From: Escherichia coli
GTDB lineage: Bacteria > Pseudomonadota > Gammaproteobacteria > Enterobacterales > Enterobacteriaceae
Assembly (NCBI RefSeq): GCF_003334335.1
Contig: NZ_QOWQ01000053.1
Strand: one strand, 5' to 3'
Length of the DNA stretch: 20,311 nt
A program made the position numbers and the translations under genes. The notes beneath the pieces are model-generated. The model was given only the letters and a program-made list of their open reading frames with translations. It was not told where the DNA came from and did not search any database. The first letter of the stretch is position 1; each line of letters starts with the position of its first letter. Shown here piece by piece: positions 1 to 19,729 of the stretch.

Positions 1-2352
1 AGTTATCGTGAGAGTAATTCATCGGCACGTTAAATCATATCAGGCGTAATACCACAACCCTTAAGTTAGCGCTTATGAGTAGTCTCCCCTCCCTGGCTTT
101 CGAAAAAGAAAAAATCGCCGATTCCGGTGCTGGATTTAGCGCCATTAGGCATTGAGCCAATCTGTTATCTGACAGAAGAAATCAGTAATCAACTTTTGGC
201 GAAATATATCTGGTATTCAAAACACATCACGGTTAGCCATGAAGAAAGTACTACCAACCTGTTGGCAAGGATGGGTTTTCAACGACGGATCGCTGGTACA
301 TGTATTAAAGCTCCCGAAGCGGTAGTTGAGGCATGGCTAAATGAAGATTATTCAACCTTACTAAGTGAATTTAAGGTGTTTCATTCACCTACCGGGCATT
401 ATTGGCAGTTGGGGATTTTGACAACATTGCCGCTGGAGAAAGCAGTAAAAGCATGGAATGCCCTTACCCTATCTCCACATACCGATACCGAATACGCCAT
501 GTTACATTTTGGACTCAAAGGGTTACCTGGGTTAGTAAACTCACTTGCACGCTATCCACAAGAAGCCTTGCCCATCACGAATTACTTCGCAGCGAGTGAG
601 CTGGCTCCTGCCGTCGCCCGTGCCTTCAACAAACTGAAAACGCTACGCGAAAACGCCCGTAGCTGGCTGTTGAAATACCCGGAACATGCCCTTACCGGCC
701 TGCTGCCTGCGGCGCTCGGCAAAGCCGGTGAAGCACAGGATAACGCCCGCGCTGCCTTGCGTATGCTTACCGAAAACGGTCATCAGCCATTACTGCAAGA
801 AATCGCCCGACGTTATAACCAGCCGGAAGTAACCGATGCGGTGAACGCTCTGCTTGCGCTCGATCCCTTAGATAATCACCCGACAAAAATCCCCACTCTT
901 CCGGCCTTTTATCAGCCATCGCTCTGGACGCGCCCGGTATTAAAAGCAAATGCCCAATCACTGCCAGATAGCGCCCTCCTCCACCTCGGTGAAATGCTCC
1001 GCTTCCCTCAGGAAGAGGCTCTGTATCCGGGATTATTGCAGGTGAAAGACGTCTGTTCCGCCGACTCACTGGCGGGATTTGCCTGGGATCTGTTTACCGC
1101 CTGGCAGACCGCTGGCGCGCCGTCGAAAGAGAGTTGGGCGTTCACTGCGTTAGGCGTTCTCGGTAACGATGACACCGCCCGCAAACTGACGCCATTAATA
1201 CGCGCCTGGCCTGGTGAATCCCAGCATAAACGCGCCACCGTTGGGTTGGATATTCTCGCTGCTATCGGTAGTGATATCGCCCTTATGCAGCTTAACGGCA
1301 TCGCCCAGAAACTGAAATTCAAAGCATTACAGGAGCGGGCAAAAGAAAAAATTGCCGACATTGCCGAGAGCCGCGAACTCACGGTGGCGGAGCTTGAAGA
1401 TCGGTTAGCACCGGATCTCGGTCTGGATGATAACGGTTCGCTGCTGCTGGATTTTGGCCCACGGCAGTTCACCGTCAGCTTTGATGAAACCTTAAAACCG
1501 TTTGTGCGTGATGTTTCCGGCAGCCGCCTGAAAGACCTGCCCAAACCGAACAAAAGCGATGATGAAACGCGGGCGAACGATGCGGTTAACCGCTACAAAT
1601 TGCTGAAAAAAGATGCGCGTACCATCGCCGCCCAGCAGGTAGCAAGGCTGGAATCCGCCATGTGCCTGCGCCGCCGCTGGTCGCTGGAAAACTTCCAGCT
1701 CTTCCTGGTTGAGCATCCGCTGGTTCGTCACTTAACCCGCCGTCTGATTTGGGGCGTTTATAGCGCCGAAAACCAGCTACTGGCTTGCTTTCGCGTAGCA
1801 GAAGATAACAGCTACAGCACCGCTGACGATGATCTTTTCACCCTGCCGGAAGGCGATATCTCTATCGGCACTCCTCACGTTCTGGAAATATCACCAACGG
1901 ATGCTGCCGCCTTTGGTCAGCTTTTTGCCGACTACGAACTGCTACCACCGTTCCGCCAGCTCGACCGTAACAGCTACGCCCTGACAGAAGCCGAGCGCAA
2001 TGCCAGTGAACTGACCCGCTGGGCAGGCAGAAAATGCCCGAGTGGTCGGGTCATGGGGCTGGCGAATAAAGGCTGGATAAAGGGCGAACCACAGGATGGA
2101 GGCTGGATCGGATGGATGATCAAACCTTTGGGTCGCTGGTCGTTAATCATGGAAATCGACGAAGGTTTTGCGGTGGGTATGTCACCAGCCGAACTTAGCG
2201 CTGAGCAGCTCTTAAGCAAGCTGTGGTTATGGGAAGGCAAAGCGGAAAGCTATGGCTGGGGGAGTAATTCAACACAGGAAGCGCAGTTCTCCGTACTCGA
2301 TGCCATCACCGCCAGCGAGCTAATTAACGATATTGAAGCCCTGTTTGAATAA
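1..2352 (+). pseudogene. molR: Disrupted DUF4132-type giant protein gene, tandem paralogue of yehI (molR/yehH locus). The residual ORF is 127..2352 (GTG, 741 aa) and the gene begins upstream of the window.
   Basis: The 741-aa ORF aligns end to end with YehI residues ~447-1207 (FAWDLFTAWQ.AGAP, DFGPRQFTV.FDE, RRWSL..F..F..HP, QLFADYE..PPFRQL). An identical 14-mer tttgcctgggatct occurs at 1078-1091 and 4774-4787. Homology continues 5' of the GTG: 79-126 reads VVSPPWLSKKKKSPIP against YehI LVSPPWRSKKKMTAPR, and nt 11-28 match yehI 3578-3595 at 15/18. The same frame has stops at 31-33 (TAA), 67-69 (TAG) and 76-78 (TGA). There is no SD before GTG127. From memory, K-12 annotates this locus as the molR pseudogene. 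Confidence 0.75.
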
Positions 2353-2361
2353 GGAAAGAGC

Positions 2362-5300
2362 ATGGACAAGGAATTACCGTGGCTGGCGGATAACGCCCAA
2401 CTGGAACTGAAATATAAAAAAGGCAAAACACCACTCAGTCATCGCAAATGGCCGGGCGAACCGGTGCCTGTTATCACTGAAAGCATCATTCAGACACTGG
2501 GTGATAAATTGCTACAAAAAGCTGAGAAGAAAAAAAACATTGTCTGGCGTTATGAAAATTTTTCACTGGAGTGGCAGTCCGCCATCACGCAGGCCATCAA
2601 CTTGATCGGCGAACACAAACCCTCAATCCCGGCCCGGACAATGGCGGCGCTAGTCTGTATCGCGCAAAATGACAGCCAACAGTTGCTCGACGAAATCGTC
2701 CAACAAGAGGGACTGGAATATGCGACTGAGGTGGTGATTGCACGCCAGTTTATTACACGATGTTATGAGAGTGATCCTCTGCTAGTGACATTGCAGTATC
2801 AGGACGAGGATTATGGCTATGGTTATCGCTCAGAAACCTATAACGAATTCGATCTCCGACTGCGTAAGCATCTCTCTCTGGCAGAGGAAAGCAGCTGGCA
2901 GCGTTGCGCCGACAAACTCATTGCCGCACTGCCAGGAATACCCAAAATTCGCCGTCCTTTTATTGCACTACTCCTCCCGGAAAAACCTGAAATAGCCAAT
3001 GAACTCGCCAGTCTTGAAAGCTCCCGGTCAAGTCTCCATTCAAAGGAGTGGTTAAAGGTCATTGCTACTGATAATACGGCGGTAAAAAAACTCGAACGAT
3101 ACTGGGGCCTGGACGTATTTAGCGATCGCGAAGCCAGCTACATGTCACAAGAAAACCGCTTCGGCTACGCGGCCTGCGCCTCCCTTTTGCGCGAACAAGG
3201 ACTGGCAGCCGTTCCGCGCCTGGCAATGTATGCCCATAAAGAAGATTGCGGCAGTCTGCTGGTACAAATTAACCATCCGCAAGTCATCCGCACCTTGCTA
3301 CTGGTGGCTGATAAAAACAAACCCAGCCTGCAACGTGTGGCTAAATACAGTAAAAACTTCCCCCACGCGACGCTCGCCGCACTGGCAGAACTGCTGGCGT
3401 TAAAAGAACCACCAGCCCGCCCAGGTTATCCAATCATCGAAGACAAAAAGCTGCCTGCACAGCAAAAAGCACGCGATGAATACTGGCGTACGCTGTTACA
3501 AACGCTGATGGCATCGCAGCCACAACTGGCAGCAGAAGTGATGCCGTGGTTAAGTACTCAAGCCAGGGCAGTGCTGAATAGTTATTTATCGGCACCGCCA
3601 AAACCGGTTATTGATAGCACCGATAACAGCAGTCTGCCTGAAATGCTCGTTTCACCACCGTGGCGTAGTAAGAAAAAAATGACAGCTCCACGTCTTGATT
3701 TGGCACCGCTCGAATTAACTCCGCAAATTTACTGGCAACCAGGCGAACAAGAGAGGCTTGCCGCCACTGAATCTGCCCGTTATTTCAGCACGGAATCTCT
3801 TGCGGAACGCATGGAACAAAAAAGTGGACGAGTTGTATTACAGGAACTGGGTTTTGGGGATGATGTATGGCTGTTTCTGAATTATATACTCCCCGGAAAA
3901 CTGGATGCTGCACGCAATTCACTCATTGTTCAGTGGCATTACTACCAGGGGCGGGTTGAAGAGATCCTGAATGGCTGGAACTCCCCGCAAGCACAATTAG
4001 CAGAACAGGCGCTCCGCAGCGGTCACATAGAAGCGTTAATTAACATATGGGAAAATGACAACTTCTCACGTTATCGTCCGGAAAAGAGTGTCTGGAACCT
4101 GTATTTATTGGCACAGTTGCCGCGTGAGATGGCTTTGACCTTCTGGCTGCGTATCATTGAGAAAAAGCATCTGTTCGCGGGTGAGGACTATTTTCTCAGT
4201 ATCCTCGGATTGGATGCGCTACCAGGTCTGCTGTTGGCTTTTTCACATCGTCCAAAAGAAACATTTCCGTTAATTTTAAATTTTGGCGCAACAGAACTGG
4301 CGCTGCCTGTTGCCCGCGTCTGGCGACGTTTCGCGGCGCAGCGTGATCTGGCTCGCCAGTGGATTTTACAATGGCCGGAACATACGGCTAGTGCACTTAT
4401 CCCTCTTGTCTTTACCAAACCCAGCGATAATAGCGAAGCCGCATTACTTGCCCTGCGTTTACTGTACGAACAGGGACATGGCGAATTGCTACAAACCGTG
4501 GCAAACCGCTGGCAGCGTACAGATGTATGGTCTGCCCTGGAGCAGTTGCTTAAACAGGGTCCAATGGACATTTACCCGGCACGCATTCCAAAAGCCCCTG
4601 ATTTCTGGCATCCGGCAATGTGGTCCAGGCCTCGACTTATCACTAATAATCAGCCTGTTACCGGTGACGCTCTGGAAATTATCGGCGAAATGCTGCGCTT
4701 TACCCAGGGGGGACGTTTTTATAGCGGGCTGGAACAACTGAAAACGTTCTGCCAGCCACAAACGCTGGCAGCTTTTGCCTGGGATCTCTTCACTGCGTGG
4801 CAACAAGCTGGTGCCCCCGCAAAAGACAACTGGGCATTTCTGGCGTTAAGTCTCTTTGGTGACGAAAGCACGGCACGGGATCTGACGACACAGATCCTCG
4901 CCTGGCCACAAGAAGGCAAATCTGCCCGTGCTGTCAGCGGCCTGAACATCCTTACCCTGATGAATAATGATATGGCGCTGATACAGCTGCATCATATATC
5001 GCAACGGGCTAAATCCCGCCCCTTACGTGATAACGCGGCGGAATTTCTTCAGGTGGTCGCAGAAAATCGCGGGCTAAGCCAGGAAGAGCTAGCGGACAGA
5101 TTAGTCCCAACCCTGGGCCTTGATGATCCGCAGGCGTTGAGTTTTGATTTTGGTCCCCGGCAGTTTACCGTTCGCTTCGATGAAAACCTCAACCCGGTTA
5201 TCTTTGATCAGCAAAACGTTCGCCAGAAAAGCGTTCCCCGGTTGCGCGCCGATGACGATCAACTGAAAGCGCCCGAGGCACTGGCCCGACTAAAAGGGCT

Positions 5301-5985
5301 AAAAAAAGATGCTACTCAGGTGAGCAAAAACCTGCTCCCGCGTCTTGAAGCTGCCCTACGTACCACCCGACGCTGGTCGCTGGCAGATTTTCATTCTCTG
5401 TTTGTTAATCATCCCTTTACCCGTCTGGTTACCCAGCGATTAATATGGGTGGTTTATCCGGCAAATGAACCGCGTTGTTTACTCAAAGCCTTTCGTGTGG
5501 CCGCAGAGGGGGAGTTCTGCAATGCGCAAGATGAGCCAATTGACCTGCCTGCGGACGCTCTGATTGGCATTGCCCACCCGTTAGAAATGACAGTAGAAAT
5601 GCGCAGTGAATTTGCACAGCTTTTTGCCGATTACGAAATTATGCCGCCTTTTCGCCAGTTGTCGCGCCGCACGGTGCTGCTCACACCTGACGAGTCAACC
5701 AGTAACAGCCTGACTCGCTGGGAAGGTAAATCCGCTACCGTTGGGCAGCTTATGGGAATGCGATACAAAGGCTGGGAGTCAGGCTATGAGGACGCATTTG
5801 TGGGCGAGTACCGGCTGGTCCTTAAGTTTTCACCCGGTTTTAACCACTACAATGTTGATAGCAAAGCGTTAATGAGCTTCCGTTCTCTTCGAGTGTACCG
5901 TGACAATAAATCCGTCACTTTTGCCGAACTTGATGTGTTTGATTTGAGTGAGGTGTTAAGCGCACCTGACGTCATTTTCCATTAA
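2362..5985 (+). CDS. yehI: YehI, 1207-aa DUF4132-family protein of unknown function
   Basis: A long uninterrupted ORF. ATG 2362 lies 9 nt after the upstream stop and is preceded by AAGGAAAGAG. Length and sequence match my memory of E. coli YehI (~1210 aa). The C-terminal two thirds are paralogous to the ORF at 127..2352. Confidence 0.93.
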   Translation: MDKELPWLADNAQLELKYKKGKTPLSHRKWPGEPVPVITESIIQTLGDKLLQKAEKKKNIVWRYENFSLEWQSAITQAINLIGEHKPSIPARTMAALVCIAQNDSQQLLDEIVQQEGLEYATEVVIARQFITRCYESDPLLVTLQYQDEDYGYGYRSETYNEFDLRLRKHLSLAEESSWQRCADKLIAALPGIPKIRRPFIALLLPEKPEIANELASLESSRSSLHSKEWLKVIATDNTAVKKLERYWGLDVFSDREASYMSQENRFGYAACASLLREQGLAAVPRLAMYAHKEDCGSLLVQINHPQVIRTLLLVADKNKPSLQRVAKYSKNFPHATLAALAELLALKEPPARPGYPIIEDKKLPAQQKARDEYWRTLLQTLMASQPQLAAEVMPWLSTQARAVLNSYLSAPPKPVIDSTDNSSLPEMLVSPPWRSKKKMTAPRLDLAPLELTPQIYWQPGEQERLAATESARYFSTESLAERMEQKSGRVVLQELGFGDDVWLFLNYILPGKLDAARNSLIVQWHYYQGRVEEILNGWNSPQAQLAEQALRSGHIEALINIWENDNFSRYRPEKSVWNLYLLAQLPREMALTFWLRIIEKKHLFAGEDYFLSILGLDALPGLLLAFSHRPKETFPLILNFGATELALPVARVWRRFAAQRDLARQWILQWPEHTASALIPLVFTKPSDNSEAALLALRLLYEQGHGELLQTVANRWQRTDVWSALEQLLKQGPMDIYPARIPKAPDFWHPAMWSRPRLITNNQPVTGDALEIIGEMLRFTQGGRFYSGLEQLKTFCQPQTLAAFAWDLFTAWQQAGAPAKDNWAFLALSLFGDESTARDLTTQILAWPQEGKSARAVSGLNILTLMNNDMALIQLHHISQRAKSRPLRDNAAEFLQVVAENRGLSQEELADRLVPTLGLDDPQALSFDFGPRQFTVRFDENLNPVIFDQQNVRQKSVPRLRADDDQLKAPEALARLKGLKKDATQVSKNLLPRLEAALRTTRRWSLADFHSLFVNHPFTRLVTQRLIWVVYPANEPRCLLKAFRVAAEGEFCNAQDEPIDLPADALIGIAHPLEMTVEMRSEFAQLFADYEIMPPFRQLSRRTVLLTPDESTSNSLTRWEGKSATVGQLMGMRYKGWESGYEDAFVGEYRLVLKFSPGFNHYNVDSKALMSFRSLRVYRDNKSVTFAELDVFDLSEVLSAPDVIFH

Positions 5986-5991
5986 AAACAC

Positions 5992-6017
5992 AGCGGGCAG
6001 TGATGCAACTGCCCGTT
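5992..6017 (+). other. Intergenic stem-loop between yehI and yehK
   Basis: cgggcagt (5994-6001) pairs perfectly with actgcccg (6008-6015) around a 6-nt loop gatgca, and is extendable by A-T/G-T pairs. Only a weak T-tract follows (ttatcaac), so it is at best a partial terminator or an RNA-stability element. Confidence 0.35.
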
Positions 6018-6046
6018 ATCAACACGACTTACCAGCGGGGAAAGCG

Positions 6047-6364
6047 ATGATCGTGCAAAAAGAGCTGGTTGCTATTTACGATTATGAGGTCCCTGTACCT
6101 GAAAATCCGTTTTCCTTCAGACTTGAGATCAATAAATGCTCTGAATTATTTACAGGTTCCGTCTATCGACTGGAGCGATTCCGGCTACGTCCAACATTTC
6201 ATCAACGTGATCGAGAAGATGCTGACCCGCTAATAAATGATGCGTTGATTTATATAAGAGATGAGTGTATTGATGAGCGGAAATTACGAGGTGAATCACC
6301 TGAAACTGTAATAGCAATTTTTAATCGTGAACTACAGAATATATTCAACCAAGAAATAGAATAA
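6047..6364 (+). CDS. yehK: YehK, 105-aa protein of unknown function
   Basis: ATG 6047 is preceded by GGGGAAAG. The 105-aa length matches E. coli YehK as I remember it. The gene is visibly AT-richer than its neighbours. Confidence 0.85.
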   Translation: MIVQKELVAIYDYEVPVPENPFSFRLEINKCSELFTGSVYRLERFRLRPTFHQRDREDADPLINDALIYIRDECIDERKLRGESPETVIAIFNRELQNIFNQEIE

Positions 6365-6441
6365 TATACTCTAAATAATTCAAATTGGTCCGATCCGGCG
6401 CAACGTCCCAATGGCCTGGATTATAAATCTCATTATCTTAA

Positions 6442-6470
6442 TTGCAACGGGGTCCAGCCGTGGTTATAAT
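6442..6470 (+). promoter_or_regulatory. Near-consensus sigma70 promoter (TTGCAA-17 nt-TATAAT)
   Basis: -35 ttgcaa at 6442-6447, an exact 17-nt spacer at 6448-6464, and a perfect -10 tataat at 6465-6470. It lies in the yehK-yehL intergenic region. Predicted TSS is about 6477. Confidence 0.45.
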
Positions 6471-6476
6471 TCGTTC

Positions 6477-6559
6477 GTTGGAACACGATGTTGCACAGGC
6501 TGCGGTGTTGGGCCTGAAAATAGTAAATAAAAGAACCTGCCTCACCAGCAGGTTTTTTT
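6477..6559 (+). ncRNA. Candidate ~80-nt small RNA, or terminated leader of the yehL operon
   Basis: Bounded by the promoter at 6442-6470 and the intrinsic terminator at 6534-6559. It contains a stem-loop caggc/gcctg (6496-6516), then an A/U-rich stretch aaaatagtaaataaaag, then the terminator with a U7 tail. It holds no ORF beyond 9 codons. Confidence 0.3.
6534..6559 (+). terminator. Rho-independent terminator
   Basis: aacctgc (6534-6540), loop ctcacca, gcaggtt (6548-6554), running into T7 (6553-6559). An A-rich tract upstream (aaataaaag) makes it potentially bidirectional. Confidence 0.75.
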
Positions 6560-6670
6560 ATTTACTGTGATCTGCTTTCCAGATATTTTCCGCTCAAACA
6601 ACTAATGCGCCAAACATTTATTGCGCGTAAAATATCGTTTATTTCATTAATACATTTCAGGGATGAATAT

Positions 6671-7759
6671 ATGTCACCGCAGAATAATCATCTGCAGCGT
6701 CCGCCTGCTGCTGTGTTATACGCCGATGAACTGGCAAAATTAAAACAAAATGATAACGCACCTTGCCCGCCCGGTTGGCAGTTAAGTTTGCCTGCGGCCC
6801 GTGCTTTTATCCTTGGCGATAGCGCGCAAAATATTAGCCGTAAAGTGGTGATTAGTCCCTCCGCTGTCGAACGCATGTTAGTCACTCTTGCCACCGGGCG
6901 CGGTTTGATGTTGGTGGGGGAACCTGGCACCGCAAAATCTCTCCTGTCTGAATTACTGGCAACCGCTATTAGCGGCGATGCCGGGTTAACCATCCAGGGC
7001 GGCGCATCTACTACCGAAGATCAAATCAAGTACGGCTGGAACTACGCCCTGCTTATCAATCATGGTCCATCAACGGAAGCGCTGGTCCCTGCCCCGCTTT
7101 ACCAGGGAATGCGCGACGGCAAAATCGTCCGTTTTGAAGAGATAACGCGTACACCGCTGGAAGTGCAAGACTGTCTGTTAGGTATGCTTTCTGACAGGGT
7201 GATGACGGTGCCGGAACTCACTGGTGAAGCCAGTCAGCTCTATGCGCGAGAAGGCTTTAATATTATTGCCACTGCCAATACCCGCGATCGCGGCGTCAAT
7301 GAAATGAGTGCTGCGCTAAAGCGTCGCTTCGATTTTGAAACTGTCTTTCCGATTATGGATTTCGCCCAGGAGCTGGAGCTTGTCGCCAGTGCTTCGGCGC
7401 GTTTGCTGGCCCATAGCGGTATTCCGCATAAAGTGCCTGACGCGGTACTGGAGTTACTGGTCCGCACCTTCCGCGATCTGCGTGCCAACGGCGAAAAGAA
7501 AACGTCAATGGATACACTAACAGCGATTATGTCCACCGCTGAAGCCGTGAACGTGGCCCACGCCGTAGGCGTCCGCGCCTGGTTTTTAGCGAATCGCGCA
7601 GGTGAGCCAGCCGACCTGGTGGACTGCATTGCCGGAACCATCGTCAAAGATAACGAAGAAGATCGCGCTCGTCTGCGCCGTTACTTCGAACAACGAGTCG
7701 CCACACATAAAGAAGCTCACTGGCAGGCTTATTATCAAGCCCGCCACCGCCTGCCGTGA
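6671..7759 (+). CDS. yehL: YehL, MoxR-class AAA+ ATPase (362 aa)
   Basis: ATG 6671 with AGGGA upstream gives the 362 aa I remember for K-12 YehL, whereas the track ORF starts at 6605. Walker A GEPGTAKS is at 6917-6940 and a Walker-B-like VRFEEI lies downstream. Size and layout fit a single-AAA MoxR protein. Confidence 0.93.
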   Translation: MSPQNNHLQRPPAAVLYADELAKLKQNDNAPCPPGWQLSLPAARAFILGDSAQNISRKVVISPSAVERMLVTLATGRGLMLVGEPGTAKSLLSELLATAISGDAGLTIQGGASTTEDQIKYGWNYALLINHGPSTEALVPAPLYQGMRDGKIVRFEEITRTPLEVQDCLLGMLSDRVMTVPELTGEASQLYAREGFNIIATANTRDRGVNEMSAALKRRFDFETVFPIMDFAQELELVASASARLLAHSGIPHKVPDAVLELLVRTFRDLRANGEKKTSMDTLTAIMSTAEAVNVAHAVGVRAWFLANRAGEPADLVDCIAGTIVKDNEEDRARLRRYFEQRVATHKEAHWQAYYQARHRLP

Positions 7760-7769
7760 GGAAAGATGC

Positions 7770-10049
7770 ATGAGCGAGCCGTTAATTGTCGGCATCCGGC
7801 ATCATAGTCCGGCCTGCGCCCGGCTGGTGAAATCGTTAATCGAAAGCCAGCGGCCACGATACGTATTGATTGAAGGCCCGGCTGATTTTAATGACCGGGT
7901 AGACGAACTGTTTTTAGCCCACCAGCTTCCGGTAGCTATTTACAGTTATTGCCAGTATCAGGACGGTGCAGCCCCCGGGCGTGGTGCCTGGACGCCATTT
8001 GCTGAATTTTCGCCGGAGTGGCAGGCGCTACAAGCCGCACGTCGTATTCAGGCACAAACTTACTTCATCGATTTGCCTTGCTGGGCGCAGAGTGAAGAAG
8101 TGGACGATTCGCCTGATACGCAAGAGGAAAGCCAGGCCTTGCTGCTGCGTGCCACCTGCATGGATAACAGCGACACCCTGTGGGATCACTTGTTCGAAGA
8201 TGAAAGCCAGCAAACTGCATTACCCTCTGCACTGGCGCACTATTTTGCCCAACTGCGGGGCGACTCCCCCGGAGATGCTCTCAATCGTCTGCGCGAAGCC
8301 TTTATGGCCCGCTGGATTGGATGGGCGATGCAGCAAAATAATGGCGACGTGTTAGTTGTCTGCGGTGGCTGGCACGCTCCGGTACTGGCAAAAATGTGGC
8401 GCGAATGCCCGCAGGAAATTAACACGCCAGAATTGCCGTCGCTGGCAGATGCCGTTACAGGTTGTTATCTCACCCCCTACAGTGAAAAGCGCCTTGATGT
8501 GCTGGCAGGATACCTTTCCGGAATGCCTGCCCCGGTCTGGCAAAACTGGTGCTGGCAGTGGGGCTTACAGCAGGCGGGAGAACAACTGCTAAAAACGGTT
8601 CTCACCCGTTTGCGCCAGCACAAGTTGCCTGCTTCGACCGCGGATATGGCTGCCGCTCATCTGCATGCGATGGCACTGGCACAGTTGCGCGGTCATACAC
8701 TACCGTTACGCACTGACTGGCTGGATGCCATAGCAGGATCGCTGATTAAAGAAGCCCTGAATGCGCCGTTGCCGTGGAGCTATCGCGGCGTTATTCATCC
8801 CGACACCGATCCGATTCTGCTAACGTTGATAGACACATTAGCGGGTGACGGATTCGGTAAACTTGCCCCTTCTACGCCACAACCTCCTCTGCCAAAAGAT
8901 GTCACCTGCGAACTGGAACGTACCGCAATCTCCCTTCCGGCGGAGCTTACCTTAAATCGCTTTAACCCCAATGGACTAGCGCAAAGTCAGGTGTTACATC
9001 GGCTGGCAATACTGGAGATCCCAGGGATTGTGCGCCAGCAGGGAAGCACACTGACACTTGCAGGCAACGGTGAAGAACACTGGAAATTAACCCGCCCGCT
9101 TAGCCAGCATGCGGCATTGATTGAGGCCGCCTGCTTTGGTGCCACACTCCAGGAAGCCGCACGCCATAAATTAGAAGCCGATATGCTGGACGCGGGTGGA
9201 ATCGGCAGTATCACCACATGTCTTAGCCAGGCGGCGTTAGCGGGTCTGGCGTCCTTCAGTCAACAATTACTGGAGCAACTCACATTATTAATCGCCCAGG
9301 AAAATCAATTTGCCGAAATGGGCCAGGCGCTGGAAGTGCTATATGCCTTATGGCGGCTGGATGAAATTAGCGGTATGCAAGGCGCGCAGATATTACAAAC
9401 GACGTTATGCGCGGCTATCGATCGCACGCTGTGGCTGTGTGAATCTAACGGCAGACCGGATGAAAAGGAGTTTCACGCTCACCTGCATAGCTGGCAAGCG
9501 CTTTGCCATATTCTGCGCGATCTACATAGCGGCGTTAATTTATCCGGCGTTTCGCTTTCTGCGGCGGTAGCCTTACTGGAGCGACGCAGTCAGGCGATTC
9601 ATGCCCCGGCGCTGGATCGCGGCGCGGTTCTTGGCGCACTAATGCGTCTGGAACATCCCAACGCCAGTGCCGAAGCGGCGCTGACGATGCTGGCGCAGTT
9701 ATCCCCGGCACAATCCGGCGAGGCGCTGCACGGTTTGCTGGCATTAGCCCGTCATCAACTGGCCTGTCAGCCGGCATTTATCGCCGGTTTCAGCAGTCAT
9801 TTAAATCAACTAAGTGATGCCGATTTTACCAATGCCCTGCCCGATTTACGCGCGGCAATGGCCTGGCTACCGCCACGAGAACGCGGGACGCTGGCGCATC
9901 AGGTGCTTGAGCATTATCAACTGGCGCAACTTCCCGTTTCGGCACTGCAAATGCCGTTGCATTGTCCACCGCAAGCCATTGCACATCATCAACAACTCGA
10001 ACAGCAGGCACTGGCATCGCTGCAACACTGGGGAGTTTTCCATGTCTGA
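7770..10049 (+). CDS. yehM: YehM, 759-aa protein of unknown function (I believe DUF5682 family)
   Basis: ATG 7770 lies 10 nt after the yehL stop and is preceded by GAGGAAAG. It yields 759 aa, matching K-12 YehM from memory. The upstream extension to 7602 lies inside yehL. I cannot name a catalytic motif. The C-terminal half is Ala/Leu-rich and looks helical. Confidence 0.92.
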   Translation: MSEPLIVGIRHHSPACARLVKSLIESQRPRYVLIEGPADFNDRVDELFLAHQLPVAIYSYCQYQDGAAPGRGAWTPFAEFSPEWQALQAARRIQAQTYFIDLPCWAQSEEVDDSPDTQEESQALLLRATCMDNSDTLWDHLFEDESQQTALPSALAHYFAQLRGDSPGDALNRLREAFMARWIGWAMQQNNGDVLVVCGGWHAPVLAKMWRECPQEINTPELPSLADAVTGCYLTPYSEKRLDVLAGYLSGMPAPVWQNWCWQWGLQQAGEQLLKTVLTRLRQHKLPASTADMAAAHLHAMALAQLRGHTLPLRTDWLDAIAGSLIKEALNAPLPWSYRGVIHPDTDPILLTLIDTLAGDGFGKLAPSTPQPPLPKDVTCELERTAISLPAELTLNRFNPNGLAQSQVLHRLAILEIPGIVRQQGSTLTLAGNGEEHWKLTRPLSQHAALIEAACFGATLQEAARHKLEADMLDAGGIGSITTCLSQAALAGLASFSQQLLEQLTLLIAQENQFAEMGQALEVLYALWRLDEISGMQGAQILQTTLCAAIDRTLWLCESNGRPDEKEFHAHLHSWQALCHILRDLHSGVNLSGVSLSAAVALLERRSQAIHAPALDRGAVLGALMRLEHPNASAEAALTMLAQLSPAQSGEALHGLLALARHQLACQPAFIAGFSSHLNQLSDADFTNALPDLRAAMAWLPPRERGTLAHQVLEHYQLAQLPVSALQMPLHCPPQAIAHHQQLEQQALASLQHWGVFHV

Positions 10050-11178
10050 ACTGAACGATCTTCTGACCACCCGTGAGCTACAACGCTGGCGATTAATTCT
10101 TGGCGAAGCGGCAGAAACGACGCTTTGTGGGCTGGATGACAACGCCCGGCAGATAGACCACGCGCTGGAGTGGCTGTATGGGCGCGATCCTGAACGGCTC
10201 CAGCGTGGTGAACGCTCCGGTGGATTAGGTGGCTCAAATCTCACCACCCCTGAGTGGATCAACAGTATTCACACGCTGTTTCCGCAACAGGTGATTGAGC
10301 GGCTGGAAAGCGATGCCGTACTGCGCTACGGCATTGAAGATGTGGTGACAAATCTCGACGTGCTGGAACGTATGCAGCCTTCCGAAAGCCTGCTACGCGC
10401 CGTTTTGCACACCAAACATCTGATGAATCCCGAAGTACTGGCTGCCGCCCGCCAGATAGTGCGCCAGGTTGTTGAAGAAATTATGGCGCGACTGGCAAAG
10501 GAAGTTCGCCAGGCTTTTTCTGGTGTCCGCGATCGCCGTCGCCGTTCATTTATTCCACTGGCGCGAAACTTTGATTTCAAAAGTACTCTGCGCGCCAACC
10601 TGCAACACTGGCACCCGCAACACGGCAAGTTGTATATCGAATCCCCCCGCTTTAACAGCCGCATTAAACGCCAAAGCGAACAATGGCAACTGGTCTTACT
10701 GGTTGATCAAAGCGGATCGATGGTCAATTCGGTGATCCACTCTGCGGTGATGGCGGCCTGTTTGTGGCAGTTACCCGGCATTCGTACCCATCTGGTGGCG
10801 TTTGACACAAGCGTCGTTGATCTCACGGCAGACGTTGCCGATCCGGTAGAGTTATTAATGAAAGTACAGTTGGGCGGCGGGACCAATATCGCCAGTGCCG
10901 TGGAGTATGGTCGGCAACTTATTGAACAACCAGCGAAAAGCGTCATTATCCTCGTGAGCGATTTTTACGAAGGGGGTTCATCATCATTACTGACGCATCA
11001 GGTGAAAAAGTGTGTCCAGAGCGGCATCAAAGTGCTGGGACTGGCAGCGCTCGATAGCACCGCAACACCTTGCTATGACCGCGATACGGCCCAGGCGCTG
11101 GTTAATGTCGGCGCACAAATAGCCGCCATGACGCCGGGCGAGCTGGCATCATGGCTTGCGGAGAATCTTCAGTCATGA
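10042..11178 (+). CDS. yehP: YehP, von Willebrand factor A (VWA) domain protein (378 aa)
   Basis: ATG 10042 overlaps the yehM stop by 8 nt (ATGTCTGA). 378 aa matches K-12 YehP from memory. The MIDAS signature DxSxS = DQSGS is at 10705-10719, followed by GGGTN and SDFYEG. Confidence 0.93.
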   Translation: MSELNDLLTTRELQRWRLILGEAAETTLCGLDDNARQIDHALEWLYGRDPERLQRGERSGGLGGSNLTTPEWINSIHTLFPQQVIERLESDAVLRYGIEDVVTNLDVLERMQPSESLLRAVLHTKHLMNPEVLAAARQIVRQVVEEIMARLAKEVRQAFSGVRDRRRRSFIPLARNFDFKSTLRANLQHWHPQHGKLYIESPRFNSRIKRQSEQWQLVLLVDQSGSMVNSVIHSAVMAACLWQLPGIRTHLVAFDTSVVDLTADVADPVELLMKVQLGGGTNIASAVEYGRQLIEQPAKSVIILVSDFYEGGSSSLLTHQVKKCVQSGIKVLGLAALDSTATPCYDRDTAQALVNVGAQIAAMTPGELASWLAENLQS

Positions 11179-13178
11179 ATTCACTACGTCCGGAATTATT
11201 AGAACTGACACCACAGGCCCTGACGGCGTTAAGCAATGCCGGTTTTGTTAAGCGCAGTCTTAAGGAACTGGAAAATGGCAACGTCCCGGAGATCAGCCAT
11301 GAGAACGACGCTTTAATCGCCACCTTCAGTGACGGTGTCCGTACCCAGCTGGCGAACGGCCAGGCACTGAAAGAGGCTCAGTGCAGTTGCGGGGCCAACG
11401 GTATGTGCCGTCATCGCGTGATGCTGGTGTTAAGTTATCAACGACTTTGTGCCACCACTCAGTCTACGGAAAAAGAAGAAGAGTGGGATCCGGCAATCTG
11501 GCTGGAAGAACTGGCTACCCTTCCCGATGCTACCCGCAAACGCGCACAGGCACTGGTCGCTAAAGGCATCACCATTGAGTTGTTCTGTACGCCGGGCGAA
11601 ATTCCCTCTGCCCGCTTACCGATGAGCGATGTGCGTTTTTATTCCCGTAGCAGCATTCGTTTCGCCCGTTGTGATTGTATTGAAGGCACACTTTGCGAAC
11701 ATGTCGTACTGGCAGTACAGGCCTTTGTCCAGGCAAAAGCGCAGCAAGCGGAATTGACTCATTTAATCTGGCAGATGCGCAGCGAACACGTCACATCATC
11801 TGACGATCTGTTTGCCAGCGAAGAAGGCAAAACGTGTCGTCAATATGTTCAGCAACTAAGCCAGGCATTATGGCTGGGCGGCATCAGCCAGCCGCTTATT
11901 CACTACGAGGCCGCTTTCAGCCGCGCGCAGCAAGCAGCGGAACGCTGCAACTGGCGATGGGTGAGTGAATCGCTACGGCAACTGCGCGCCAGCGTTGATG
12001 CCTTCCACGCCCGCGCCAGCCACTATCATGCCGGAGAATGCTTACGTCAGCTTGCGGCATTAAACAGTCGATTAAATTGCGCACAAGAGATGGCGCGGCG
12101 CGACAGTGTTGGTGAAGTTCCTCCTGTGCCGTGGCGCACGGTCGTTGGCTCTGGCATTGCCGGAGAAGCAAAGCTTGATCATCTGCGGCTGGTGTCTTTA
12201 GGTATGCGTTGCTGGCAGGATATTGAGCATTATGGTTTACGCATCTGGTTTACCGATCCCGACACCGGCAGTATTTTGCACCTTTCGCGCAGTTGGCCGC
12301 GAAGTGAACAGGAAAACTCACCGGCAGCTACGCGTCGGCTGTTTAGTTTTCAGGCTGGCGCACTGGCGGGTGGGCAAATTGTTTCACAAGCAGCAAAACG
12401 CAGTGCCGATGGCGAGCTGCTGTTAGCTACCCGCAACCGCTTAAGCAGCGTTGTGCCGCTGTCGCCTGATGCCTGGCAAATGTTGAGCGCGCCGTTACGC
12501 CAGTCGGGCATTGTGGCTTTGCGGGAATATTTACGCCAGCGTCCCCCCTCCTGCATACGGCCTCTTAATCAGGTCGATAACTTATTTATTCTGCCGGTCG
12601 CTGAGTGTATTTCGCTCGGTTGGGATAGCAGCCGCCAGACGCTGGATGCGCAGGTAATCAGCGGCGAAGGTGAAGATAATCTGCTGACGTTATCACTGCC
12701 AGCCTCAGCCAGCGCGCCTTATGCCATTGAACGCATGGCGGCGCTTTTGCAACAAACAGACGACCCCGTGTGTCTGGTTTCTGGCTTTGTCAGTTTTGTT
12801 GATGGGCAATTGACACTGGAACCACAGGTAATGATGACAAAGACTCGTGCCTGGGCGCTGGACGCAGAAACTGCGCCTGTGGTGGCATCACTACCTTCTG
12901 TCAGCGTTCTGCCTGTGCCGTCTACTGCTCATCAGTTGCTGATGCGCTGCCAGGCATTACTTATTCAACTGCTCCATAACGGCTGGCGCTATCAGGAACA
13001 GAGTGCTATTGGTCAGGCAGAGTTGCTGGCGAATGACCTCACCGCGGTGGGTTTTTATCGGCTGGCACATGTATTGGGACAATTTCGTAATACAGAAAGC
13101 GAGGCACGGGTAGAAGCAATGAATAACTGCGTTTTGCTGTGCGAACAATTATTCCCCATGCTTCAGCAACAAGGATGA
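11175..13178 (+). CDS. yehQ: YehQ, SWIM zinc-finger protein (667 aa from the coupled start)
   Basis: ATG 11175 overlaps the yehP stop as ATGA (11175-11178). There are two CxCx5CxH motifs: CSCGANGMCRH (about 11382-11414) and CDCIEGTLCEH (11670-11702). An alternative in-frame ATG at 11151 lies inside yehP. I am unsure of the reference length of YehQ. Confidence 0.85.
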   Translation: MNSLRPELLELTPQALTALSNAGFVKRSLKELENGNVPEISHENDALIATFSDGVRTQLANGQALKEAQCSCGANGMCRHRVMLVLSYQRLCATTQSTEKEEEWDPAIWLEELATLPDATRKRAQALVAKGITIELFCTPGEIPSARLPMSDVRFYSRSSIRFARCDCIEGTLCEHVVLAVQAFVQAKAQQAELTHLIWQMRSEHVTSSDDLFASEEGKTCRQYVQQLSQALWLGGISQPLIHYEAAFSRAQQAAERCNWRWVSESLRQLRASVDAFHARASHYHAGECLRQLAALNSRLNCAQEMARRDSVGEVPPVPWRTVVGSGIAGEAKLDHLRLVSLGMRCWQDIEHYGLRIWFTDPDTGSILHLSRSWPRSEQENSPAATRRLFSFQAGALAGGQIVSQAAKRSADGELLLATRNRLSSVVPLSPDAWQMLSAPLRQSGIVALREYLRQRPPSCIRPLNQVDNLFILPVAECISLGWDSSRQTLDAQVISGEGEDNLLTLSLPASASAPYAIERMAALLQQTDDPVCLVSGFVSFVDGQLTLEPQVMMTKTRAWALDAETAPVVASLPSVSVLPVPSTAHQLLMRCQALLIQLLHNGWRYQEQSAIGQAELLANDLTAVGFYRLAHVLGQFRNTESEARVEAMNNCVLLCEQLFPMLQQQG

Positions 13179-13256
13179 AATAGTGCTTTTTACTAAGAGT
13201 TCTACTCCAGTTCCGGACTGCTCACACCACGGTATTAGGCATATCCTATATAGCCC

Positions 13257-13273
13257 CTGGTGAGAGTCACCAG
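13257..13273 (+). other. Perfect 7-bp hairpin/palindrome in the yehQ-yehR spacer
   Basis: ctggtga-gag-tcaccag, followed by ttccttgatt. It could be a weak operon-end terminator or a protein-binding palindrome 30 nt upstream of the yehR start. Confidence 0.3.
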
Positions 13274-13302
13274 TTCCTTGATTAAATAAAATGGAGTTTT
13301 AC

Positions 13303-13764
13303 ATGAAGGCTTTCAATAAGCTGTTTTCCCTTGTTGTTGCATCTGTTCTGGTTTTCTCTCTTGCTGGCTGCGGTGACAAAGAAGAATCGAAGAAATTCAG
13401 CGCCAATCTGAACGGCACTGAAATTGCCATTACCTATGTCTACAAAGGTGACAAGGTGCTTAAGCAATCTTCAGAAACCAAAATTCAATTTGCCTCTATT
13501 GGTGCAACCACCAAAGAAGACGCTGCCAAGACACTTGAGCCGTTAAGCGCCAAATACAAAAACATCGCGGGTGTTGAAGAAAAATTAACCTATACCGATA
13601 CCTACGCGCAGGAAAACGTGACTATCGATATGGAAAAAGTGGATTTTAAAGCCCTGCAGGGTATTTCAGGAATCAACGTTTCTGCTGAAGATGCCAAAAA
13701 AGGTATCACTATGGCGCAAATGGAACTGGTGATGAAAGCCGCTGGTTTTAAAGAAGTGAAATAA
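13303..13764 (+). CDS. yehR: YehR, predicted lipoprotein (153 aa)
   Basis: ATG 13303 with GGAG 6 nt upstream. The signal peptide ends in the lipobox LAGC (Cys23). 153 aa matches K-12 YehR from memory. Confidence 0.92.
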   Translation: MKAFNKLFSLVVASVLVFSLAGCGDKEESKKFSANLNGTEIAITYVYKGDKVLKQSSETKIQFASIGATTKEDAAKTLEPLSAKYKNIAGVEEKLTYTDTYAQENVTIDMEKVDFKALQGISGINVSAEDAKKGITMAQMELVMKAAGFKEVK

Positions 13765-16723: not shown

Positions 16724-16944
16724 ACCCGCAAACCACACTTCCCTTTAAAACGCGTAACATACATTGCCTGCGTTTAACTTTCTTTGAACTCTTGCAGAAA
16801 AATGAGAATTCGTGAGTACGATCACTCAAAATCGCCTGGCAAAAATAAAATCACCCTATAAATGCACAAAAAACGGGCAAAACTACCTGGTTCGCAAAAC
16901 TGCGTCTAAAGTTAAACCGGGACCTCGCGAGCAAGGGTGAGACG

Positions 16945-17013
16945 ATGGCGCTTTACACAATTGGTGAAGTGGCGTTGCTTTGTGATATTAACCCTGTCAC
17001 GTTACGCGCGTGA
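16945..17013 (+). pseudogene. mlrA: 5' fragment of mlrA (yehV), the MerR-family activator of csgD, truncated after codon 22
   Basis: It reads MALYTIGEVALLCDINPVTLRA then TGA, whereas MlrA continues WQRRYGLLKPQ. Nothing downstream in any frame continues MlrA. The truncation falls inside the N-terminal HTH. Confidence 0.85.
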
Positions 17014-17030
17014 CGCAACATTTTTAAAAA

Positions 17031-17110
17031 TCGACGAAGATCGTCCAGGAGCGCCGTTTTTCAAGGGTTGGATAGATGATTCGTTTACCATGTCGACGAA
17101 CTTCGACGAA
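17031..17110. repeat. Three copies of TCGACGAA, two of them 10 bp apart
   Basis: tcgacgaa occurs at 17031-17038, 17093-17100 and 17103-17110, followed by a degenerate ttcgccga. gacga/tcgtc forms a small inverted repeat at 17033-17045. The palindrome T5A5 at 17021-17030 lies just after the junction. Confidence 0.6.
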
Positions 17111-17136
17111 TTTCGCCGATAAAAAGTGTCCCATAC

Positions 17137-17156
17137 ATGCCCCATTGATGCCCCAT
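17137..17156. repeat. Tandem ATGCCCCAT x2 with 11-bp register
   Basis: atgccccat occurs at 17137-17145 and 17148-17156. Confidence 0.6.
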
Positions 17157-17171
17157 AAACAATATCAGGAA

Positions 17172-17201
17172 TTGACACTGGTTATCCATACAGACAAAAA
17201 T
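17172..17201 (+). promoter_or_regulatory. Candidate promoter of the dinI-like gene (TTGACA-18 nt-AAAAAT)
   Basis: A perfect -35 ttgaca at 17172-17177 and a weak -10 aaaaat at 17196-17201. The predicted TSS falls inside the LexA box. Confidence 0.35.
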
Positions 17202-17206
17202 AACAC

Positions 17207-17222
17207 CTGTACATAACCACAG
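17207..17222 (+). promoter_or_regulatory. LexA (SOS) box CTG-N10-CAG
   Basis: acCTGtacataaccaCAGtt has the CTGT-N8-ACAG core. It lies 16 nt upstream of the dinI-like ATG and resembles the chromosomal dinI operator as I remember it (ACCTGTATAAATAACCAGTA). Confidence 0.6.
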
Positions 17223-17237
17223 TTACAGGAGGGTGTT

Positions 17238-17486
17238 ATGCGTGTTGAGATCTGTATCGCTAAAGAAAAAATCAGCAAAATGCCAAAAGGTTCTGTTTCT
17301 GCCCTGCAGCAAGAAATGCTTCGACGTGTCAGTAAACGTTATGACGATGTGGACGTGATTGTCAGAGCCGCCAACAATGACAGTCTCACCATTTTAAGAG
17401 CTGTAGATAAAGAATCCGCGCACGAATTTGTTCAGGAAACACTGCAGGAAGCCTGGGAAACCGCTGACGACTGGTTTATTCGGTAA
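17238..17486 (+). CDS. DinI-family protein (82 aa), prophage-encoded
   Basis: AGGAGGG lies 5 nt upstream of the ATG. It aligns with E. coli DinI (MR.E..IAK at the N-terminus; [12 protein letters not shown] against LQETWESADDWF at the C-terminus). Confidence 0.88.
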
Positions 17487-17497
17487 ATCTTCTTTAC

Positions 17498-17524
17498 GGG
17501 GAGTTAACTTACTCCCCATTTTTT
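17498..17524 (+). terminator. Rho-independent terminator of the dinI-like gene
   Basis: ggggagt (17498-17504), loop taactt, actcccc (17511-17517), then A+T6. The T-tract overlaps the stop codon of the convergent small ORF. Confidence 0.8.
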
Positions 17525-17651
17525 ATTGCATGATAATTGCAGCAACGGCACAGAGTGTCACCACACCACCCAGCCACACAAACAGCATGAAGCACATTGC
17601 TCCCGCTGTATAACGTTTTCTCCCGTACATACGGCATTTGTCTTTATTCAT
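17523..17651 (-). CDS. Candidate 42-aa single-pass membrane peptide
   Basis: MNKDKCRMYGRKRYTAGAMCFMLFVWLGGVVTLCAVAAIIMQ has a basic N-terminus followed by a ~24-residue hydrophobic helix. AGGGG lies 6 nt upstream of this ATG, and a second ATG sits one codon upstream at 17654. The ORF lies 46 nt downstream of the LuxR-type gene on the same strand. I recognise no family. Confidence 0.3.
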   Translation of the reverse strand: MNKDKCRMYGRKRYTAGAMCFMLFVWLGGVVTLCAVAAIIMQ

Positions 17652-17700
17652 CATCTGCCCCTGAATCACATGAAGACGCTGCAGGTCCGGTAACACTGAA

Positions 17701-18174
17701 TCACTCCGCACACGCAAGATGTTTCACGCTCACACCATACAGCCCGTTTTTCGCCATTCCCGTATACAGAAAGGTATTCACCGTCTTCGTGTGAATGCCC
17801 ATTTCACTGGCAAGGCGACAGGGTCTCGACTGGCGGTAGACGTAGCCAAACATCACCACCATCTCTGACATCGTCAGCGGACGGGCAACGCTGTTATACG
17901 TCCATACACCATTGCGTATGGCATCACTTATCTGCTCACCATCACGGAGTGATTCCGCACCCAGTTGCAGAAAATGCCGTCCCTGGAACATGCAGCGCAT
18001 CAGTCTGCCCAGCAACGTATCACAGATTATCAGCCAGGATTCGTCAAAGTCCGGGATATAACGGCGGTTCTCCGGCAGGAAAAACTCCCTCGCCAGTATC
18101 ACACTGTGTTCCTTCAGTAACGCCTGCAGACCATACTCCAGATAGCGATTCCTGGTAGCCAGAATCACCTTCAT
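17701..18174 (-). CDS. Small LuxR/GerE-type HTH regulator with a degenerate receiver-like N-terminus (157 aa)
   Basis: The C-terminus LTMSEMVVMF...RLASEMGIHTKTVNTFLYTGMAKNGL fits the LuxR/FixJ HTH pattern (LT..E..V......iA.elgIs.kTV..h...i..KLg.). The N-terminus MKVILATRNRY lacks the acidic DD pocket. ATG 18174 has GGAAGG 7 nt upstream, whereas the track start at 18204 has no SD. Confidence 0.75.
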   Translation of the reverse strand: MKVILATRNRYLEYGLQALLKEHSVILAREFFLPENRRYIPDFDESWLIICDTLLGRLMRCMFQGRHFLQLGAESLRDGEQISDAIRNGVWTYNSVARPLTMSEMVVMFGYVYRQSRPCRLASEMGIHTKTVNTFLYTGMAKNGLYGVSVKHLACAE

Positions 18175-18209
18175 CGCAGCACCTTCCTGTTTTTTATGCC
18201 CCATGAAAA

Positions 18210-18238
18210 ACGGCAGACCAGAGTCCTGCGCCTGCCGT
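18210..18238 (-). terminator. Weak terminator/attenuator after the adhesin gene
   Basis: On the - strand acggcag (18238-18232) pairs with ctgccgt (18216-18210) around a 15-nt loop, followed by only TTTT. It sits directly upstream of the LuxR-type gene, so read-through is likely. Confidence 0.35.
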
Positions 18239-18262
18239 CATGCTTCATGTCACTGTCAGCAA

Positions 18263-19336: not shown

Positions 19337-19353
19337 GTGGTATACCCTATAAA

Positions 19354-19382: not shown

Positions 19383-19439
19383 CATCGGATATATAAAGAA
19401 AATCTGATGTCTCGCCGCTCTCATGAGCTTACTCCTGAA

Positions 19440-19712: not shown

Positions 19713-19729
19713 TACGAAAATTCTGTATT
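19713..19729. repeat. Copy 1 of the exact 17-mer TACGAAAATTCTGTATT
   Basis: It is identical to 19889-19905, which lies 176 bp away. Confidence 0.85.

Follow-up and report, generated by a model that had tools for sequence, protein, structure and literature searches.

A conserved MoxR-VWA gene module with polymorphic WGR-DUF4132 partners at the yehH-yehQ locus of Escherichia coli

We analyzed a stretch of 20,311 nucleotides from Escherichia coli (contig NZ_QOWQ01000053.1, hereafter the window), which lies in the chromosome between the metG side and the btsSR side and carries the MoxR-class ATPase gene yehL together with the genes around it. Some part of the window was matched in all 5426 of the 5426 complete E. 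coli genomes compared by megablast, and the best whole-window matches were about 97% identical; these and all genome counts given below reflect DNA similarity and not gene intactness. Four plus-strand genes form the core of the locus. They encode a MoxR-class AAA+ ATPase (yehL, 6671-7759; AAA_5, 1.6e-34), a DUF5682 protein (yehM, 7770-10049; Pfam, 8.4e-98), a CoxE-type VWA protein (yehP, 10042-11178; VWA_CoxE, 3.6e-72) and a protein of 667 residues with two SWIM fingers (yehQ, 11175-13178; SWIM, 9.3e-08). A 10-nt gap separates yehL from yehM (GGAAAGATGC); yehM then overlaps yehP by 8 nt (ATGTCTGA), and yehP overlaps yehQ by 4 nt (ATGA). Two DUF4132 genes precede them on the same strand. The first is a truncated yehH (molR; here yehH', 79/127-2352), which comprises the C-terminal 741-757 codons of a WGR-HEAT-DUF4132 protein (DUF4132, 9.1e-51 in Pfam). 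The second is yehI (2362-5985), whose product of 1207 residues has HEAT-like repeats and DUF4132 (3.3e-47) at residues 954-1138 (5221-5775). A sequence-only reading of the window had pointed out the Walker A, metal ion-dependent adhesion site (MIDAS) and double SWIM motifs of yehL-yehQ, their junctions and the upstream paralogue pair. All of these were borne out, the motifs being conserved in 67-75 homologues from other genera, and the profile hidden Markov model searches it had proposed matched all products (AAA_5, DUF5682, VWA_CoxE, SWIM and DUF4132).

In the following, D stands for WGR-HEAT-DUF4132, L for the MoxR ATPase, M for DUF5682, P for the CoxE-type VWA protein and Q for the double SWIM protein. 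A scan for YehM relatives with one genome per species returned at least 583 loci, and the 80 closest to YehM were analyzed; their open reading frames (ORFs) were called mechanically in six frames and searched with the proteins of the window. These 80 loci come from Gamma- and Betaproteobacteria, Myxococcota, Actinomycetota, Acidobacteriota and one Desulfuromonadaceae metagenome-assembled genome (MAG). The order D-L-M-P-Q on a single strand was found in 37 of them and the same order with two or three D genes in at least 17, a few showed L-M-P-Q-D, and incomplete sets were mostly located at contig ends. Gene calls labeled with Pfam families gave L-M-P-Q-D in Burkholderia and D-L-M-P-Q in Serratia, both with the 4-nt overlap of yehP and yehQ. 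The D gene begins with a WGR domain in nine of ten diverse loci, so that the ancestral unit consists of [WGR-HEAT-DUF4132] + MoxR + DUF5682 + VWA + SWIM. Between E. coli and actinobacteria, myxobacteria or acidobacteria, identity reaches 61-77% for L and 53-70% for P, and cross-phylum values are 37-48% for M, 28-39% for Q and 31-55% for D. D-L-M-P-Q is a self-contained, colinear module that occurs in at least four phyla. The prior proposal had named a lack of co-occurrence outside Enterobacteria as grounds for giving it up, and the genes do co-occur there, colinear and on one strand. Such a fixed five-gene unit argues for one machine and not for a chance neighborhood.

The surroundings of the module are variable. 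Flanking ORFs from 36 diverse loci (112 in total) carried 147 Pfam families, none of them in more than four loci (SDRs, MFS and ABC transporters). A client enzyme gene conserved beside the module was found in none of the 36 or more loci examined, and each genus has different flanks. In one of the 36 loci an ADP-ribosylglycohydrolase gene (PF03747, 5e-72) adjoins the module; this single case is curious, because WGR is a PARP-type domain.

YehL gives its name to one of the seven MoxR subfamilies (PMC3893208). Its Walker A motif (GEPGTAKS, 6917-6940) and the segment at the Walker B position (IVRFEE, 7109-7147, residues 147-159) are each at least 95% conserved in 75 sequences. The acidic pair of the latter is E-E and not D-E, a variant that is probably functional. 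The VWA gene yehP lies two genes 3' of yehL within the MoxR operon, and this arrangement is retained in all complete loci. YehP (378 residues) matches the VWA_CoxE model over positions 1-222 of 222, with the model ending at residue 372. The protein has a helical, conserved N-terminal region and a complete MIDAS (DQSGS at 10705-10719 with D222, S224 and S226, followed by T281 and D307), which is at least 95% conserved in 74 homologues. A +1 ribosomal frameshift cassette of yehP was published in the FSscan paper (PMC2790909), and this sequence, GTGGAGTATGGTCGGC, is present exactly at 10900-10915 on the plus strand. The frameshift product would end 75 residues before the C-terminus of the VWA protein and be without the part that follows MIDAS D307.

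The end-to-end match of YehP to the CoxE model would fit a maturation or cofactor-insertion chaperone of the CoxD-CoxE, NorQ-NorD, CbbQ-CbbO or chelatase kind. A ChaN-like YehM would then bind heme or a metal, the machine would load or remove it, and the client would be encoded elsewhere. Indeed, characterized MoxR-VWA pairs perform metal insertion or enzyme reactivation, and in E. coli the module belongs to the chromosomal core and resembles housekeeping genes. However, the cox, nor and cbb operons keep their MoxR-VWA pair beside the client, while the yeh module has no such conserved neighbor, and WGR, SWIM and the hypervariable D partner have no role in this model. Together with the residue pattern of YehM described below, this makes a chaperone of that kind unlikely.

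Among solved structures, the best sequence relatives of YehL are AAA modules of midasin (E 3e-10 to 9e-9, values that sum six weak repeats of which no single stretch passes the threshold). The sole bacterial MoxR structure detected, 2r44 (6.5e-4), ranked below midasin, and the structures of RavA, CbbQ and NorQ gave no sequence match to YehL at E <= 1e-3. The sequence profile of YehP had no matches in the PDB. The ranking of midasin ahead of 2r44, together with the HEAT solenoids and the MIDAS domain of the module, would be consistent with a split midasin-like machine that removes assembly factors from a large ribonucleoprotein, for example the ribosome, and uses SWIM and WGR as RNA-binding adaptors. 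Against this speak the summed nature of the E-values and the flanking sets, in which no ribosomal or RNA-processing genes lie nearby. Furthermore, the module is absent from most bacteria and therefore cannot be a general assembly factor. We consider a midasin-like role highly improbable.

YehM had initially been left without a nameable motif. Besides DUF5682 we now recognize a TIKI-like N-terminal domain and a HEAT/ARM solenoid. The N-terminal domain (residues ~1-250, 7770-8519, plus strand) is assigned to the TIKI/TraB/ChaN/erythromycin-esterase-like alpha/beta fold of the TIKI superfamily with a parallel beta-sheet core and represents a putative hydrolase, whereas the C-terminal two thirds (8520-10049, plus strand), the remainder of DUF5682, match HEAT/ARM-like alpha-solenoids. 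Invariant motifs of the N-terminal domain are G8-x-R10-H11, E35 and C198-G-G-x-H202, and the invariant set as a whole comprises H11, H202, E35, E83, E143, E176, R10, R163 and R175. H11, E35 and H202 stand directly after strands 5-9, 31-37 and 194-199, and these strands are parallel. The TIKI superfamily is defined by a parallel sheet core, a 2His/2Glu site and a conserved basic residue, and it includes PMT, HopBA1, Bcr135, ChaN and the Ras-cleaving endopeptidase RRSP (PMC6254334). The invariant residues of YehM appear to occupy the positions expected of an active TIKI-type site. Their His/Glu/Arg set matches that of TIKI members with catalytic activity and not that of ChaN, which argues against the heme- or metal-loading role considered above. 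EreC and PMT appeared at lower ranks. Among 49 YehM homologues the commonest non-self Pfam matches were ChaN (5), Ere (2) and TraB (1), all below threshold with a best E of 0.06, and these matches lend independent, weak support to the fold. On the other hand, a Foldseek search of the YehM model against the PDB returned only non-significant helical-repeat matches, which speaks against the TIKI reading, and the sequence profile of YehM had no matches in the PDB. Apparent fusions of YehM with YehP and of YehM with YehL were single-contig singletons, 95-99% identical to E. coli; they were rejected as sequencing read-through and not used.

The two SWIM fingers of YehQ (CSCGANGMCRH, 11382-11414, and CDCIEGTLCEH, 11670-11702) both fit the CxCxnCxH signature and are kept in 65 and 55 of 67 homologues, respectively. 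The other ~480 residues, at the C-terminus, matched no Pfam family, and a sequence profile of YehQ found no relative in the PDB.

By profile search, the D proteins consist of WGR and alphaRep-type HEAT repeats. An AlphaFold2 model of YehH' (predicted local distance difference test score 94.7) gave HEAT/TOG matches and a TBP-like domain; the alignment behind the model was built from representative-library matches, and a direct homologue search gave Escherichia sequences only. Full-length YehH orthologues have 1249-1264 residues with WGR and DUF4132. In the window, Pfam detected a WGR domain in neither D ORF: it was removed by the insertion sequence (IS) IS421 in YehH' and was never present in YehI. 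Compared to the single D gene of other phyla, YehH' is 39-55% and YehI 31-38% identical, and intact YehH is found in very large E. coli clusters as well as in a strain whose yehLMPQ is 100% identical to that of the window. By these comparisons yehH' is the ancestral, canonical WGR-bearing orthologue (MolR) and YehI a WGR-less, divergent duplicate.

The end of IS421, an IS4-like element, occupies positions 1-78 on the minus strand and truncates yehH; positions 1-22 are the start of the transposase coding sequence, also on the minus strand. Strains without IS421 match the window from base 78 onward only, and strain G6/7 shares the junction (IS421 transposase at 4910-6022 of locus L001, where the window starts at 6001). 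The apparent decay of yehH in this strain is therefore an IS truncation. The sequence-only reading had seen no mobile flank on the left and a duplication followed by decay of the largest component. Both points have to be revised, since a mobile element is visible at the left edge and the disrupted copy is the conserved WGR-bearing orthologue, which is intact in most E. coli. The yehH' frame contains in-frame stops up to codon 26 and is otherwise an open C-terminal fragment of 741 codons, severed by IS421 from the N-terminal ~520 residues with the WGR domain and from the SOS-box promoter. In K-12, yehH is also broken and is known as the molR pseudogene. In other strains IS1 has also inserted in the DUF4132 (D) region. 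The resistance transposon TnMB1860 sits in the D region of sequence type 131 (PMC9334617), and with IS421 here this makes the DUF4132 region a recurrent insertion site.

The D proteins are mosaics of a constant C-terminal HEAT-DUF4132 half and a variable N-terminal half. In YehI, residues ~401-620 (3562-4221, plus strand) form a hypervariable cassette that begins after an invariant PPW motif; type A and type B alleles of Escherichia are 32-33% identical there and 94-99% identical in the flanks. Type A is found in 5263 of the 5426 E. coli genomes. The homologous cassette of yehH' (residues 1-~200, 127-726, plus strand) extends upstream into the missing N-terminal part and is 41-66% identical to the other E. 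coli allele class, compared to 93-100% for the remainder. For YehH as a whole, identity falls to 41-78% in the N-terminal ~700 residues and is 95-100% in the C-terminal ~560. The YehH block of the window is present in 3383 genomes (62%), yehH being matched somewhere in 5411, and the R10-type N-terminal part of YehH in 667. A third tandem paralogue (D1 of strain R10) was detected in 1644 genomes (30%) and falls into three identity classes. In R10 the three tandem WGR/DUF4132 genes span 2380-13596 of locus L086, and three tandem copies were likewise seen in cryptic Escherichia clades, Klebsiella and Massilia (loci L004, L005, L013 and others). The differences between YehH and YehI are not those of simple alleles, but are partly paralogy, since some E. 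coli have three tandem copies. Thus the earlier view of the DUF4132 component as a diversified module holds, with one to three tandem copies, deep N-terminal classes and a C-terminal part that is 95-100% identical. The four genes yehLMPQ were found in 5355 of the 5426 genomes (98.7%), single-copy and at one locus, and were 95-99% identical to the window in 5323 of 5357 matching records. In E. coli ECGI0523 (L003) and Shigella flexneri SFBU0723 (L048) the yehH-yehQ region is split into many short ORFs, which reflects either massive pseudogenization, plausible for Shigella, or indel-rich assemblies.

The ratio of non-synonymous to synonymous substitution rates (dN/dS) was computed against two other Escherichia clades. 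It amounts to 0.015-0.03 for yehL, 0.06-0.09 for yehP, 0.09-0.14 for yehM, 0.09-0.11 for yehQ and 0.13-0.18 for yehH' and yehI (yehI 0.16-0.18), with 0.006-0.03 for the neighboring btsSR genes as comparison. All module genes are under purifying selection. The motor (L, P) is nearly frozen, while high polymorphism marks the N-terminal half of each DUF4132 partner. A test for positive selection was negative: dN/dS was below 1 gene-wide and in all 80-codon windows (maximum 0.57), the dS of the variable blocks being saturated. Saturated dS together with dN/dS below 1 indicates that the variable blocks are old haplotypes, shuffled by recombination, without detectable recent positive selection.

Expression of the first D gene in E. 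coli appears to be linked to the SOS response. A LexA-box-like sequence, CTGGATAAAATTACAG, is located 10 nt 5' of the D gene that comes first after metG, whichever paralogue this is; this holds for each of the three E. coli loci covering the region (L001, L084 and L086). The window itself has no SOS-box promoter, which was lost to IS421. Consistently, molR is among the genes of the LexA regulon with a known SOS box (PMC6590174). In Deinococcus, the DUF4132 protein DRA0166 and the WGR protein DR2173 are induced by mitomycin C via IrrE/DdrO (PMC8533742). In the loci scanned, neither LexA- nor Cheo-type boxes were found 5' of D outside Escherichia and Klebsiella, and SOS control is therefore not a general property of the module. 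In E. coli, yehL and yehM are upregulated in hns/stpA mutants, and H-NS was bound at the intergenic yehL promoter (PMC3686432).

The sequence-only reading had proposed a nucleoside triphosphate-dependent conflict system, which could include an anti-phage role. The variable WGR-DUF4132 proteins would serve as sensors of invaders, YehL-YehP as a threshold switch and YehM as a TIKI-type protease effector that acts by abortive infection or target cleavage. This role would fit the tandem expansion of the D gene with its deep allele classes and constant C-terminal part, a third paralogue that about 30% of E. coli genomes carry and the others lack, a first D gene under SOS control, and the H-NS data. 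The spread across phyla with an ATPase that is 61-77% identical suggests horizontal transfer. The TIKI fold is also that of toxins or effectors (RRSP, HopBA1 and PMT), and MoxR-vWA dyads are the core of described conflict systems (PMC7159879). However, that eLife 2020 paper mentions neither the module nor YehL, WGR or SWIM, and a placement of these genes among conflict systems by the Aravind group was not found in the literature searched. The yeh locus also lacks a VMAP, iSTAND or beta-propeller component as well as any effector fusion on its vWA protein. PADLOC-DB 2.0 gave no family match at E <= 0.01 for any of the eight proteins searched. The flanks of the 36 loci are heterogeneous and housekeeping in character, and PADLOC returned only generic ATPase-type matches for the flanking ORFs, each in at most three loci. 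Of 72,556 plasmid records, 38 contain a YehM relative, and most of these are chromids, megaplasmids or mislabeled chromosomes; 50,697 phage records contained one weak match. Moreover, the single copy at a fixed site in nearly all E. coli is unlike the patchy distribution of defense genes, and dN/dS stays at or below 0.57 in every 80-codon window. The conflict reading has partial support, and we regard it as doubtful, if conceivable.

We tentatively favor a different explanation, at somewhat less than an even chance: the module may be an ATP-driven remodeling machine that gates a TIKI-type hydrolase via variable adaptors linked to nucleic acid or DNA damage. The claim that a multi-component MoxR-VWA assembly of this kind is not explained by any characterized E. 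coli pathway still stands. MoxR-VWA pairs cooperate in target remodeling and metal insertion, as stated in two papers (PMC13036017, PMC9976466). By analogy with such characterized pairs, a YehL ring would use ATP to pull or twist YehP, and the YehP MIDAS would grip an acidic residue of a partner on the alpha-solenoid scaffold, that is the C-terminus of YehM or the DUF4132 proteins. The constant C-terminal HEAT-DUF4132 half of YehH/YehI may dock to the core, and selecting or sensing a ligand may fall jointly to the SWIM protein and the variable N-terminal half, which contains WGR. This ligand would most plausibly be nucleic acid or a DNA-damage-linked nucleoprotein, because of the WGR and SWIM domains and the SOS regulation or radiation/desiccation response (RDR) regulation. 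The ATP-driven rearrangement would then open or position the TIKI-type hydrolase of YehM, which would cut a client protein or an ester. Since IS421 has knocked out the canonical WGR partner, only the WGR-less YehI could serve in the present strain.

Several observations weigh against this remodeling machine. The Walker B acidic pair of YehL deviates from D-E, and the LexA-like box was found in Escherichia only, possibly also in one Klebsiella MAG, and was absent 5' of D in the other loci scanned. The Deinococcus DUF4132 gene may lie apart from MoxR/VWA genes. The literature searched contained no interaction, ATPase activity, hydrolase activity or phenotype for the Yeh proteins. A more specific version is an SOS-linked surveillance system, in which interchangeable WGR adaptors, of several deep allele and paralogue classes in a species, would recognize particular DNA lesions, DNA-protein adducts or foreign nucleoprotein together with SWIM, and the motor would license the TIKI protease to cleave the protein bound there; it could alternatively be a chromosomally fixed immune sensor that reads damage. 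We give this version little probability. If it were true, the module would be the functional counterpart in bacteria of the eukaryotic route by which an AAA+ protein (p97) and a protease deal with DNA-bound proteins.

The locus itself is no discovery, because its genes are annotated and the YehL subfamily is named. Literature on the gene names, DUF numbers and operon names contained incidental mentions only. Compared to the literature searched, three points appear to be new: a fixed architecture of five genes that includes a WGR-DUF4132 partner, a TIKI-fold domain within DUF5682 and the pattern of a frozen motor with polymorphic adaptors. YehL is one of only two MoxR ATPases in E. coli and the namesake of its subfamily, and the partners in its module lack an assigned function. 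A YehM hydrolase gated by an AAA+/VWA pair would be a new type of output for MoxR systems. Together, the findings turn a set of y-genes into a concretely testable machine.

Further elements surround the module genes in the window. The gene yehK (6047-6364, plus strand) is an ORF of 105 residues without a Pfam match that was found in Escherichia loci only, and yehR follows the module at 13291-13764 (plus strand). Both are Escherichia or enterobacterial additions outside the conserved module. YehK matches phrog_36295 (1e-69) and YehR phrog_26217 (1e-101), each over the full length; these PHROG families are of unknown function, and both genes are probably chromosomal genes swept into prophage predictions and not phage genes. 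The spacer between yehK and yehL holds a gene for an OrzO-P-type antitoxin small RNA (sRNA; 6484-6559, plus strand; Rfam RF02083, 101 bits, full length) with a consensus-like promoter, TTGCAA-17-TATAAT, at 6442-6470. The zorO-orzO locus has been described before (PMC2887945). The ORF of the 29-residue ZorO toxin was not found within the window; it is present (MDTLTQKLTVLIAVLELLVALLRLIDLLK) in Escherichia sp. E1V33 (L002, 8382-8471, minus strand). As far as the sequence tells, this strain seems to keep an orphan antitoxin, the sRNA being a passenger in the spacer.

The right-hand part of the window after btsS (~16900-20311) is prophage-like and AT-rich (GC 0.37-0.40); strain GDSC2BY4G has mlrA-yohO-yehW at this place. 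It contains a DinI-like gene (17238-17486; phrog_189, 1e-25), phage ORFs of unknown function and an adhesin/tail-like ORF (18263-19336, minus strand). In the G6/7 locus a LexA-box-like sequence, CTGTACATAACCACAG, lies just 5' of the DinI-like gene (L001, 23222-23237).

Finally, we compared the Yeh module to known systems. The Mg- and Co-chelatases (BchI-BchD-BchH and CobS-CobT-CobN) differ from it in that no CobN or BchH homology was found in the Yeh proteins, and SWIM, WGR and TIKI have no counterpart there. Midasin/Rea1 likewise brings together an AAA_5 ATPase, a helical linker and a MIDAS domain. In Yeh, however, each part is a small protein of its own, the AAA chain has just one module, and the evidence for the likeness is weak; Yeh is not known to be linked to ribosome biogenesis. 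The MoxR-VWA chaperone pairs (CoxD-CoxE, NorQ-NorD, CbbQ-CbbO and RavA-ViaA) share with Yeh an AAA_5 MoxR ATPase encoded beside a VWA protein with an intact MIDAS. Yeh differs from them by three further conserved subunits (TIKI-HEAT, double SWIM and WGR-HEAT-DUF4132), by the lack of an adjacent client enzyme gene and by the E-E pair of Walker B. The vWA-MoxR ternary systems described in eLife 2020 by Kaur, Burroughs, Iyer and Aravind (VMAP, iSTAND and bpMoxR; PMC7159879) also have a dyad derived from CoxD-CoxE with a CoxE-like helical N-terminus on the vWA protein, and they likewise add large subunits with repeat superstructures and a variable, sensor-like component. In contrast to these systems, Yeh has no VMAP, iSTAND or beta-propeller, YehL matches bpMoxR with 18.6 bits compared to a cut-off of 27, there is neither an effector fusion to the vWA protein nor an enrichment next to defense genes, and the module is core in a unicellular species. 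The N-terminal domain of YehM has the parallel-sheet alpha/beta fold in common with the TIKI superfamily (Tiki1/2, TraB/PrgY, RRSP, erythromycin esterases, ChaN, HopBA1 and PMT C1-C2), and its invariant His, Glu and Arg residues at strand ends would correspond to the 2His/2Glu site. It differs from these families in having no significant sequence match to them (best E 0.06) and in its first motif, which is G-x-R-H-H and not E-x-H. A further difference is its fusion to a HEAT solenoid of 500 residues within a MoxR-VWA operon.

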